A DNA stretch of 64,000 nt from Candidatus Atelocyanobacterium thalassae (GCA_051971635.1 JBFPLN010000001.1:192001-256000); one strand, 5' to 3'; positions 7,178 through 49,455 are shown, numbered from the stretch's first letter. The notes: generated by a model from the letters alone, not told the origin. Numbers and translations are program-made.

Positions 7178-7870
7178 TTGAAGTCCTTAAATTTTTTAAG
7201 TATTCTTCGCAGAGAAACCCGTCAATTTGCAGTAATTGGACTAGGACGCTTTGGACGTTCAGTATGTAGAAACCTTCATAAATTAGGTTATGAAGTATTA
7301 GGAACAGATATAAAGGAATCTTTAGTATCTCAAGTTTTAGCTGAAAACATTGCTTCCAGTGCCATTAAATTAGATTCAACCAAACCCAATGCTTTAAAGG
7401 AAGCAGGTATTTTTGAATTTGATACTGTTATTATTGCTATTGGTAATTATCTAGAAGAAAGTATTGTTACTGCTTTAAATGTTAAAGAAGGAGGTGTAAA
7501 ATATGTAATTGCCAAGGCCTCTTCTGATGTGCATGGTAAGCTTCTTCAAAAAGTTGGGGCTGATCTAGTTGTATATCCTGAATATCAAGCTGGATGTGAT
7601 TTAGTTCATTTACTTACACAAAATCCTAGAATTATAGAAAGGTTTGAACTTGATCCTGATCATAGTATTGTAGAAACTCGTATTCCTCAAGAGTTCCATG
7701 GGATAGCTATTGAAGAATTAAAGCTTAGAAGTCGATATGATATAAGTGTATTAGCAGTAGGTAATGATGATAAATTCAAAATTAATCCTTCGCCCCAAGA
7801 GAAATTAAACAAGAATTTATCAATGGTTGTTATTGGTTCCAATAAGGCAATTCAAAAACTACCTCTATAA
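7178..7870 (+). CDS. ktrA: Ktr K+ uptake regulatory subunit KtrA (RCK/TrkA domains)
   Basis: FAVIGLGRFG Rossmann motif, TrkA-N and TrkA-C; follows ktrB. Confidence 0.92.
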   Translation: MKSLNFLSILRRETRQFAVIGLGRFGRSVCRNLHKLGYEVLGTDIKESLVSQVLAENIASSAIKLDSTKPNALKEAGIFEFDTVIIAIGNYLEESIVTALNVKEGGVKYVIAKASSDVHGKLLQKVGADLVVYPEYQAGCDLVHLLTQNPRIIERFELDPDHSIVETRIPQEFHGIAIEELKLRSRYDISVLAVGNDDKFKINPSPQEKLNKNLSMVVIGSNKAIQKLPL

Positions 7871-7871
7871 G

Positions 7872-8426
7872 TTAGATATCAGGAAAAACATTATTATTTT
7901 TAATTGATGTAGAATTTAAAAGAAATAGAGATGCGCGAGCTATGGCCTCATGGGACAAGTTGATTTTAGTTAACTTTATTAAACCTTCTTTAATAAACAT
8001 ATCTCTAATTGAGGTTTTACTACCTTTGTTAAATTCCGTCTCATAAAAAACTTCTTTAATTCCAGCAGAAATTATTAGTTTTAAACAAGACATACAAGGT
8101 TCTAACGTTACATAAATAGTAGACTCATTGGTAGAAATGCTATGTTTTGCTGCCTGTGCGATTGCATTTGCTTCTGCATGTACAGCCCGTGAAGGCAAAT
8201 TACTGGAAGAAATGCAGCTGTTAAGTCCTGGATAGCAAACACCCTGAGTTATGCAGTGAGTAGAATTAGCAGGAGGTCCATTGTAGCCAGTAGATAATAC
8301 TTGTTTATTTTTTACAATCACAGCACCTACTGGGAAAGCTAAGCAAGTAGATCTTGTAGCAGCCAATTTAGCCATCATCATAAAATATTCGTTCCAAGTA
8401 AGTCTTTTACCTTTTAGATATGTCAT
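7872..8426 (-). CDS. dCMP deaminase (ComEB-like)
   Basis: WNEYFM...A.RSTC, GYNG, and the zinc motifs HAEANA and PCMSC. Confidence 0.92.
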   Translation of the reverse strand: MTYLKGKRLTWNEYFMMMAKLAATRSTCLAFPVGAVIVKNKQVLSTGYNGPPANSTHCITQGVCYPGLNSCISSSNLPSRAVHAEANAIAQAAKHSISTNESTIYVTLEPCMSCLKLIISAGIKEVFYETEFNKGSKTSIRDMFIKEGLIKLTKINLSHEAIARASLFLLNSTSIKNNNVFPDI

Positions 8427-8458
8427 AAAAATAGTTATGAAAATTATTTAGAAAAACA

Positions 8459-8890
8459 CTAGATTCCTGTTGATCCAAATCCATTGGTGCCTCTTATTGA
8501 AGATTTTAAAGAGTTTACTTCTTCAATTTCAACATGCATGATAGGTACAATAACCATCTGTGCGATTCTCATACCTGGTAAGACTTTAAATGATCTTGAG
8601 CCGTGATTGATCAAAATTACTCCAATTTCTCCACGATATCCTTCATCAATAGTTCCCGGAGTATTTAAAACAGTAATTTGACTTTTTAAGGCTAAGCCAC
8701 TTCTAGGACGAATTTGTGCTTCTGTCTTGGGAGGTAGTTCAATGGAAATACCAATTTTGACTAATTTACTTTCACCAGGTTTAATTTCTATTTCTTCTAC
8801 AGCTCTTAAATCCATTCCTGAATCTTTACAATGTTCGTATTGTGGAATAACTGCAGAATCCTTTAATTTGACTATTTTTAGCTTATTCAT
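8459..8890 (-). CDS. dut: Trimeric dUTP diphosphatase
   Basis: [41 protein letters not shown]. Confidence 0.97.
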
Positions 8891-9071
8891 ATGAGTATTT
8901 ATCTATATCGAAAAATCAAGTTAACTTAAAATTCTACCGAAAATAATTATAAAAAATAAGTATTTACCAAAATTTGTATTTTATATATGAAAGTTTAACT
9001 ATCCTAACAAAATTATATTCTGATATCAAAAGCTATAAATACTTACATAATAATCTCAAGGATTCATCAGA

Positions 9072-10586
9072 CTAGTTTTTAATTGTTAAAGGTTTATCTT
9101 GTTGGTAATAATAAAGTTTATTAGTCAAGCAAATTTCTGCTTTTTGCAGTTCTGCTCCTAAGTACATAGCATGCTTTATTCCAATACCAGGACACTCTTC
9201 TGCAATTTTATTATAGATTTTTTTGGCAGATTTACCAAAGTAGCAATTTACAATTTCTCCTGATCCTGGGGTAATATGTTCAACAGATATTTGATTATTT
9301 TTAATGAAGATTAAATAGCTTCCACTAGGATCAGCATATTGCTTTTCTTGACATATTTTTTTATATTCTGCATCTACTATTTTGTCTGCATATTCCCAGC
9401 AATCATTATAAATATGAGCACTTTGACTAATAGTAATTAATGGACCAACTTTTAATTCATGGTTCGATCTATTTTGTATTTCTTTAATAATATGTACTTG
9501 TAATGCTCTTAAGCCCATCGCATTTGAAGGCCATGCAGAAAACATATCATTGCTACGAAATGTAGCTGTTAAAGATAATTCATTATCAATAGTTCTTATC
9601 CAAATATGATTTAGACAAGGAGGACTATCGTTATTATCATGATCGTGAACATCCCATAGAGACATAACAGCTCTAGAAGAATTAATATCAGAAATCAGTA
9701 AATTGATAACTTGTTCAATTTGATCTTTTTTAAACCAAGATCTTAATCTTTGTCCATATGTATACTTAATTCCTTCTCGTTGTGGAGAATCATCAAGAAT
9801 TTGAGATATGTAGTCACTGATAAACTCTTTTTTTATAGGAAGATAATTAGGCTCAGGAAAATAAAAATTTAATGGCTCATCCGTAACAACAGCTGTAATA
9901 TCAATTAATTCTTGCCATTTTCCATATTCGGTTGGCCTAATTCTTCCAGTTGTTTTAATACGATGTAATATTTTGACCCAAGTTTCTGCTACTGTATTAC
10001 CTTCTATCCGATGACAATATTTAGTTCCCGGACGTATTTTTGAATCGATTTCTGTAAAAGGAAAAGTTAGAGGTTTGTTCCAAGGCTTTTTTTTCTTTTT
10101 GTAATTAAGCTCCTTCACGTAATCAATGGCTTCAGGAATAGACTTAACTTCTCTATGAACTATAGATTCACGAAGTGATTCTAATACATTAGCAGGAATT
10201 TCTATATCTATATATCCGAGAATATCGGAATCGATAACCCATACATCTTTCCCTATGTGATCAACTCCTATCTTAAAACCTTTATTTAAGAAATCTAATA
10301 GACATTGACATCCCCCTGCATTTCGATCCTCTTTCGTTGATTGCAAGATAGTTAATGAAATCACATGAGGATTTGCCAGTAAATTTCTTATTAAGGGGCT
10401 AATACCTCTCGTTGGACTGTATAGGTTGCCAATAACTGCATACTCTTTCGATGTCAAATATTTTGCAACTGACTCTTTAACGGTCCATCCAGTAATAATA
10501 GCTGTTTGTCCATAACCACAAATTAATTGGTTAGGTTTATAATGCGGAGCATAATTAAATAAATAATTTGATGATGTTATATCCAT
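9072..10586 (-). CDS. Thymidylate synthase-like three-domain protein (MtrA-like N-domain + ThyA core + DUF4346-like C-domain)
   Basis: ThyA catalytic pattern: YTYGQRL, SSRAV, PPC(324), R(344)SND..., N(355), SAHIY. About 180 extra N-terminal residues and about 85 extra C-terminal residues. Co-oriented with dut and dCMP deaminase. Confidence 0.85.
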   Translation of the reverse strand: MDITSSNYLFNYAPHYKPNQLICGYGQTAIITGWTVKESVAKYLTSKEYAVIGNLYSPTRGISPLIRNLLANPHVISLTILQSTKEDRNAGGCQCLLDFLNKGFKIGVDHIGKDVWVIDSDILGYIDIEIPANVLESLRESIVHREVKSIPEAIDYVKELNYKKKKKPWNKPLTFPFTEIDSKIRPGTKYCHRIEGNTVAETWVKILHRIKTTGRIRPTEYGKWQELIDITAVVTDEPLNFYFPEPNYLPIKKEFISDYISQILDDSPQREGIKYTYGQRLRSWFKKDQIEQVINLLISDINSSRAVMSLWDVHDHDNNDSPPCLNHIWIRTIDNELSLTATFRSNDMFSAWPSNAMGLRALQVHIIKEIQNRSNHELKVGPLITISQSAHIYNDCWEYADKIVDAEYKKICQEKQYADPSGSYLIFIKNNQISVEHITPGSGEIVNCYFGKSAKKIYNKIAEECPGIGIKHAMYLGAELQKAEICLTNKLYYYQQDKPLTIKN

Positions 10587-49083: not shown

Positions 49084-49455
49084 TCAATCCTGAATATACT
49101 CTGTTCCTTGAATCATAGCTATTTCAGCTTTCATAAACTCTCTACCAAGATAAGCAGCATGATCTAACATCGTAATAGAACAATTATCATTATTCTCAAT
49201 AATTTTGATACATAGTTCTTTTGCACTACGTGCTGTAAAAATTTGTGTAGCATTACGAACTATTTTATTTCTTACAGAAATAACCTCTCCACTTTCTGGA
49301 TCAATTGCTAGTCCTTTATCATTGATTTTATTTGTAAAATACTTAGCACAAATAAGATTTTGGCTACGATCAATATAAATTATGAAATACCCTCCTGGAT
49401 CAAGTTTTATGTAGCGTTTAGAAAGTTTTTCATCAAGCTGTTTAACTGTTTCCAT
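49084..49455 (-). CDS. DUF4346 domain protein (stand-alone)
   Basis: LDPGGYFIIY...ARSAKEL...DHAAYLGREFMKAE...YIQD. Confidence 0.82.
   Translation of the reverse strand: METVKQLDEKLSKRYIKLDPGGYFIIYIDRSQNLICAKYFTNKINDKGLAIDPESGEVISVRNKIVRNATQIFTARSAKELCIKIIENNDNCSITMLDHAAYLGREFMKAEIAMIQGTEYIQD

Follow-up and report, generated by a model that had tools for sequence, protein, structure and literature searches.

We describe an unusual thymidylate synthase encoded in a 64,000-nucleotide stretch of the Candidatus Atelocyanobacterium thalassae genome (the window), a 504-residue protein in which a short archaeal-type ThyA core is flanked by an MtrA-fold domain and a DUF4346 domain. This fusion very probably makes deoxythymidine monophosphate (dTMP) as the cell's housekeeping synthase. 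The best explanation as a whole, which we hold with about even confidence, is that the core performs ThyA chemistry and releases dihydrofolate, that the accessory domains bind ligands, and that a separate enzyme re-reduces the dihydrofolate. The fusion is not peculiar to this genome; it is widespread and already labeled thymidylate synthase in databases and in the supplement of PMC12903740, which lists a 504-residue UCYN-A gene as thyA, orthologue of cce_0382, which is relative P0004 in our homologue search.

The synthase gene occupies positions 9072..10586 on the minus strand and encodes three domains, which were delineated with Pfam, NCBIfam and a structure model: the N-domain (residues 13-171, 10074..10550), the core (about residues 185-410, 9357..10034) and the PterinBD-DUF4346 C-domain (about residues 415-500, 9087..9344). 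Within the core, PF00303 matched residues 271-409 (E 3e-16, 59.7 bits against a cut-off of 24.3), and hhalign aligned the core to E. coli ThyA with a probability of 99.9. The top NCBIfam match was the methanogen-type model TIGR03283 (E 5e-41, model positions 3-199 of 201), at 140.4 bits below the cut-off of 174.55, which agrees with the archaeal-type core proposed in an initial annotation made from the sequence of the window. The counterparts of E. coli C146, R166, S167, D169, N177, H207, Y209 and Y94 (Y277 here) are 97-100% conserved in 139 sequences, with C324 kept in 137 of 139, R344 in 137, S345 in 139, D347 in 135, N355 in 138, H391 in 139 and Y393 in 137. Asn at the N177 position excludes cytosine substrates, whereas members that act on dCMP carry Asp there; the specificity position is occupied by Asn and not Asp in 138 of the 139 sequences. 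All of the residues and motifs quoted in the initial annotation are in place (C324, R344, N355, SAHIY at 389, KEDRNAGG at 85, FRSNDMFSAWPSN at 343 and D419).

The distribution of the gene points to a role in dTMP synthesis. Full-length fusions occur in 67 of 401 genomes of the phylum, all from one order; among the 186 oxygenic genomes sampled this is roughly one in three. After removal of 16 near-redundant genomes from three genera, the 50 carriers left of the other 66 were compared with 30 non-carriers. ThyX was present in 1 of 50 carriers versus 30 of 30 non-carriers, dividing the 80 genomes into 49 with the fusion only, 30 with ThyX only, one with both and none with neither; related genomes are not statistically independent, and exchange of the fusion and ThyX was seen within several genera. 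The fusion is the only PF00303 protein in every carrier, and none was found in any non-carrier. A same-slot swap with thyX was observed in two genera. In G351 (L011:5021-9047), thyX lies directly upstream of the fusion and both genes are intact, while in G005 (L012:3000-4078) the fusion is reduced to a 31-codon remnant, behind which thyX and dut take its place; the flanking sequences share 93% identity with those of the carrier G139. Because the fusion is the sole synthase, alternates with ThyX and is swapped with it in the same gene slot, dTMP synthesis is very probably its function, and the earlier proposal that it is the cell's route to dTMP gains support from the 80 genomes. As a separate observation, the ThyX matches of seven genomes (G105, G117, G127, G183, G229, G093 and G121) are split in two within open frames of 420-690 residues in an intein-like manner.

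The gene inventory of the host genome (1,469,411 bases, 31% GC, 99.74% complete, with Crocosphaera as the nearest named relatives of its proteins) leads to the same conclusion. The host is probably a UCYN-A-type endosymbiont, a nitrogen-fixing cyanobacterium of reduced genome. PF00303 has a single match genome-wide, the fusion gene, and no match to ThyX, FolA (PF00186), thymidine kinase, RibD_C or MetF was found in the genome. The absence of thyX and dihydrofolate reductase (DHFR) reported for the window therefore extends to the whole genome, which has no second thyA either. Folate genes are retained: FolP (279 residues, lacking an N-terminal extension), HPPK, FolE and serine hydroxymethyltransferase (SHMT). 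Comparison with two congeners gave dN/dS values of 0.13-0.15 for the N-domain, 0.07-0.11 for the core and 0.06-0.08 for the C-domain, with dut and the deaminase gene alike, so all three synthase domains are under purifying selection. Relaxed selection on the fusion gene is ruled out by these values of 0.06-0.15 across every domain, and the importance earlier ascribed to the gene is substantiated by them and by the lack of an alternative gene. RibD_C (PF01872), missing here, was present in 14 of 14 control genomes.

An AlphaFold2 model of the 504-residue protein, built from 139 sequences, was compact and confident (pLDDT 95.5, pTM 0.91). Residues 13-171 matched the MtrA structure 5laa_B (VIA Z 17.0, root-mean-square deviation 2.1 Å, 143 residues aligned), the next unrelated row scoring Z 7.0. 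A profile match to 5laa (E 0.006), a weak NCBIfam MtrA match at residues 39-142 (E 3e-4) and two relatives, P0261 and P0266, that pass the PF04208 cut-off point to the same fold; ESM Atlas returned only MtrA and DUF4346 clusters, and the genome has no separate mtrA match. W34 is invariant in this domain, and G53, Y56, G61, N68, N72 and D87 are conserved. According to passages of PMC4915002, MtrA G57, V61, N64 and T53 line the pocket that takes up the nucleotide tail of cobalamin, while His84 and Glu54 serve cobalt ligation. In a profile alignment to 5LAA, MtrA G57, V61, N64, N68 and P69 pair with G61, L65, N68, N72 and P73, whereas the cobalt ligand His84 stands opposite R88, adjoining the near-invariant D87 (kept in 131 of 139 relatives). 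His occupies the R88 column in 2 of 139 relatives and any of columns 82-92 in at most 4 of 139, and ungapped extension of the alignment replaces T53 with S57 and E54 with P58. Since the counterparts of G57, V61 and N64 are retained and those of His84 and Glu54 are not, the nucleotide-tail pocket looks kept and cobalt ligation lost, which upholds the initial view of an MtrA-like N-terminus that lacks the cobalt His.

The C-terminus is DUF4346-like from D419, as had been suggested: PF14251 matched residues 419-495 (E 2e-22, 80 bits against a cut-off of 29.6). The pterin-binding label is Pfam's name for this domain. D419, G422, H472, Y475, E479, Q496 and D497 are its conserved residues, and five of them (D419, G422, H472, E479 and Q496) are kept at 91-99% among relatives; outside the core, W34 and H472 are invariant and D87, D419 and E479 nearly so. 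Two weak NCBIfam matches were also seen, one to TIGR00284 and the other between the C-terminus and an MtrA model. Structure comparisons matched neither accessory domain to a known reductase fold. With both terminal domains matched to their proposed families, no further thyX or thyA in the genome and no relaxation of selection, none of the computational outcomes that would have contradicted the initial annotation arose. That annotation is supported in part, a role of the accessory domains in recycling or replacing the cofactor being a possibility.

The window also contains a standalone DUF4346 gene that the initial annotation did not mention (123 residues, 49084..49455, minus strand; PF14251 E 8e-30), whose product hhalign aligned to the synthase C-domain with a probability of 99.5. 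A model of this protein returned no Foldseek match at E<=0.001 and a best VIA Z of 6.1. It is an orthologue of slr0651 and appears among the core genes in the PMC12903740 supplement, and PF14251 was found in 186 of 401 genomes of the phylum, comprising 186 of 186 of the same, oxygenic class and 0 of 215 in other families; Sulfolobus and two methanogen control genomes have it as well. In 30 loci, the standalone gene neighbors psb32 (12 loci) and a FemAB-like gene (9 loci), and no recurrent folate gene lies beside it.

All three domains occur together in 131 of the best 150 relatives at 50% clustering, a list biased to full-length matches, and the remaining 19 are shorter and resemble fragments. 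A 378-residue protein of G113 (L194:1138-2274, G113:C11), the only one of 50 genomes searched with a match above the MtrA cut-off, comprises a Cys-rich N-terminus, a His-retaining MtrA domain and DUF4346, with no synthase core. This protein suggests that the core was inserted into an older, pre-existing MtrA-DUF4346 module. No longer DUF4346 fusion was found among 86 candidates, which is weak evidence. Separately, a 733-residue chain from a Nanoarchaeota metagenome-assembled genome (P0261/P0288) joins MtrA, thymidylate synthase and DUF4346 to a dCMP deaminase. A literature search that took in few subscription journals and bioRxiv supplements returned no paper on DUF4346, PF14251, TIGR03283, TIGR00284 or MtrA together with thymidylate synthase, nor an enzyme test.

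Phages carry the fusion as well. Of 113 pattern matches in IMG/VR, 109 encode a relative, with ribonucleotide reductase and nblA as frequent neighbors, and in a large group of cyanophage-like contigs of 80-90 kb (L042, L061, L085 and related) the fusion lies between nblA and nrdA/nrdB. In a tree built by a quick method and rooted at the midpoint, 18 cyanobacterial and 6 viral rows share one clade (Shimodaira-Hasegawa-like approximate likelihood ratio test 99) among further viral rows. Exchange of the gene between cyanobacteria and viruses is evident from this placement, with no direction claimed. Searches of GenBank phages and PLSDB plasmids gave no full-length relative, and a contig scan with the distant relative P0187 gave one weak locus.

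In the mechanism that we favor, dCMP deaminase and dUTPase would supply deoxyuridine monophosphate (dUMP) to the fusion. By family resemblance, Cys324 would attack C6 of dUMP, Asn355 would select uracil, and methylene-tetrahydrofolate from SHMT would donate both carbon and hydride as in ThyA, leaving dihydrofolate. The short core lacks the folate-clamping parts of ThyA, and the MtrA-fold and DUF4346 domains would most likely bind a ligand, either on the folate side or as a nucleotide in the MtrA tail pocket, and not act in redox chemistry. The dihydrofolate would then be re-reduced by a separate, non-FolA enzyme, for which the best local candidate is a short-chain dehydrogenase/reductase (SDR) encoded upstream of folE; the standalone DUF4346 protein or an enzyme imported from the host could serve instead.

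Most cyanobacteria have no recognizable DHFR, its gene being unidentified, according to passages of PMC1971073 and PMC12903740. Strong FolA matches (E<1e-30) were found in 10 of 50 carriers, all of one family, versus 1 of 30 non-carriers, with weak partial matches in 6 and 4 more; 40 of the 50 carriers thus have no strong match and 34 have none at all. Within that comparison, family f6 has FolA in 10 of 22 carriers versus 1 of 8 non-carriers, kin that are not independent. The genome encodes three SDRs, namely FabI, FabG and a member of family NF005672 directly upstream of folE, between accA and folE on the minus strand (G000:C4:101886-102668; L170:890-1669). At E<=1e-60 the NF005672 SDR was detected in all 50 carriers and in 26 of the 30 ThyX genomes (76 of 80 overall), being absent only from ThyX genomes; folE adjoins it in 17 of 20 loci, and in genus g2 both carriers but none of three ThyX genomes have it. 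We regard the folE-linked SDR as a candidate pterin or dihydrofolate reductase. Parts of PMC12903740 report that UCYN-A lacks a folate transporter and imports hundreds of host proteins. Ordinary recycling routes are on offer in the folE-linked SDR, the modest FolA excess in carriers and host protein import, although the last cannot account for free-living carriers.

Several observations weigh against the favored mechanism. The counterpart of R126' is variable and H147 is replaced by L325, and no residue could be assigned to R21, E58 or W80, the N-terminal part of the profile alignment being of low confidence; textbook ThyA chemistry is accordingly not guaranteed. Residues 187-413 best matched the phage dCMP hydroxylase AfhB (VIA Z 23.3) and MilA (21.5), above ThyA (17.7-19.6). 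The candidate SDR carries the motif TGASSGIG without the Arg of pteridine reductases (a motif that we took from PMC13259868), resembles sepiapterin reductase among many SDRs, and may act in biopterin synthesis instead. None of the 34 phage records with the fusion, 18 of them near-complete, has DHFR, a count that has no matched set of ThyA phages beside it. One comparison phage, T4-like, does have DHFR beside its synthase, and thymidylate synthase and DHFR families group in jumbo phages according to a passage of PMC7824862.

The absence of DHFR from these phages favors the self-sufficient synthase put forward in the initial annotation, a possible but less than probable alternative. Here the MtrA-fold domain would bind a nucleotide redox cofactor and DUF4346 a pterin, and dihydrofolate would be re-reduced on the chain or never released, so that the fusion would parallel DHFR-TS without homology to it and be freely interchangeable with ThyX. 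The scarcity of FolA in carriers, and the thyX swap in genomes without strong FolA (G351, G243, G139), fit such an enzyme, as do the three domains kept together in distant relatives, the compact model predicted for the chain, the invariant or near-invariant residues outside the core, and a standalone DUF4346 that follows the FolA-poor oxygenic class. Neither accessory domain shows a match to a known reductase fold, however, FolA is commoner in carriers than in non-carriers, related as these genomes are, and the folE-linked SDR is present in every carrier. Phages may also rely on a reductase of their host.

A broader version of this idea, which we consider doubtful, is that the MtrA-fold and DUF4346 domains form an unrecognized device for reducing dihydrofolate or dihydropteroate. 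Fused to the core, the device would yield a DHFR-independent synthase; as standalone DUF4346, possibly with FolP as in archaeal fusions of a dihydropteroate synthase (DHPS)-like domain to DUF4346, it would provide the missing cyanobacterial route to tetrahydrofolate. Of 60 genomes searched among the 215 of other families, 2 have FolA and 53 a pterin-binding barrel. In family f39 FolP is short, and FolA and DUF4346 are both missing; as FolP occurs without either of them in six f39 and other non-oxygenic genomes, DUF4346 is not required wherever FolA is absent, which argues against the self-sufficient synthase also. The non-photosynthetic family f34 (L158-L163, L171-L173), likewise without FolA or DUF4346, has a FolP of ~380 residues with a 120-residue N-terminal extension, which may resemble the Helicobacter type of reductase-fused FolP and has no homology to the N-domain or the C-domain of the fusion.

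The structural ranking of AfhB and MilA above ThyA raises the prospect of a modified product such as hydroxymethyl- or hydroxy-dUMP, like those of phage pyrimidine-modifying members of the fold, and the frequency of the fusion in phages (109 stretches) fits this; hydroxymethylases, moreover, need no DHFR. Such a product is nonetheless quite unlikely, given a fusion that is the sole synthase in 49 of 50 carriers, a host without a salvage kinase, the in-place swap with thyX and an Asn355 that, by the Asn/Asp rule, bars cytosine substrates; a Pfam scan of 119 proteins encoded near the fusion in phages gave neither a glycosyltransferase nor a base-modifying partner. Very unlikely too is a cobamide-dependent methylation, in which His-off pseudocobalamin in the MtrA-fold domain would pass a methyl group to Cys-activated dUMP and leave folate unoxidized: the tail-pocket residues, the His-retaining MtrA-DUF4346 relative in G113 and the pseudocobalamin synthesis reportedly retained in the lineage (passages of PMC12903740) are outweighed by the loss of the cobalt His and, by ungapped extension, of its partner Glu54, by retention of the gene in two diatom endosymbionts that the same passages report to lack cobamide synthesis, and by the want of an evident methyl source, as MetF is absent from the host genome and its two congeners and a MetH-type second pterin-binding domain from the host genome.

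The genes that would furnish dUMP lie immediately downstream of the synthase. The initial annotation described three co-oriented genes; these are minus-strand open reading frames of 504, 143 and 184 residues, and their coordinates, shared direction and family matches all hold: dUTPase (dut, 143 residues, 8459..8890) matched NF001862 and TIGR00576, both above cut-off, and the ComEB-like dCMP deaminase (184 residues, 7872..8426) matched PF00383 above cut-off and TIGR02571 below it. The gaps are 181 bp between synthase and dUTPase and 32 bp between dUTPase and deaminase. Both congeners carry the same three genes. The trio is not fixed, as dCMP deaminase is nearby in 11 and dut in 4 of 20 fusion loci, where Dcd-like and thymidylate kinase genes also recur. 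Promoter-like sites are at chance level (15 observed, 17.9 expected). The stops of the deaminase gene and of a convergent ktrA-like gene are 1 bp apart (window positions 7870-7872), and a scan of this spot gave no terminator-like site.

The missing FolA of cyanobacteria is usually excused by ThyX, which needs little folate recycling. This excuse fails for the 67 of 186 oxygenic genomes, and for many of their phages, in which the synthase has the ThyA fold and FolA is mostly missing. One possibility is that the fusion spares folate, which would give a textbook reaction a new mechanism; the other is that its carriers have an efficient reductase that has escaped recognition. In a genome of only 1.47 Mb few candidates are left: the accessory domains, the standalone DUF4346, one folE-linked SDR and an imported host enzyme. 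If the ordinary explanation is true, two domains and the missing reductase would gain an annotation.

Among known systems, the archaeal short synthases of TIGR03283 match the fusion core best by family and share its PCL, RSND and SAHIY motifs. Archaeal short-type synthases occur in organisms without FolA. The fusion differs from them in scoring below cut-off, in being twice as long with two extra domains, and in a host that uses folate (FolP, HPPK) and not methanopterin. With E. coli ThyA (EC 2.1.1.45) it shares the eight conserved counterparts listed above; it departs from ThyA in the replacement of H147 by Leu and F176 by Ser (S354), in the variable R126' and in a C-terminal tail replaced by DUF4346, and its genomes usually lack FolA. 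In ThyA, F176 and the C-terminal tail clamp the folate. MtrA and its cytoplasmic homologues (PF04208, 5LAA) share the fold and the matched G57, V61 (as L65), N64 and N68-P69, whereas the N-domain has lost His84 and is part of a soluble nucleotide-synthesis enzyme. DUF4346 is common to the MtrA-DUF4346 (NF002128) and DHPS-like-DUF4346 (TIGR00284) proteins, and in the protein of G113 the two accessory domains follow each other as they do in the fusion; these proteins have no synthase core, and that of G113 keeps its His. The functional analogues DHFR-TS and ThyX make dTMP independently of a separate FolA, and ThyX shares the gene slot, while the fusion has neither a DHFR domain (no PF00186 match in the genome) nor similarity to ThyX. 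Finally, AfhB, MilA and T4 dCMP hydroxymethylase have the same short thymidylate synthase fold, with top structural scores, but the fusion is set apart from them by Asn355 at the specificity position and by its place as the sole synthase of cellular genomes.

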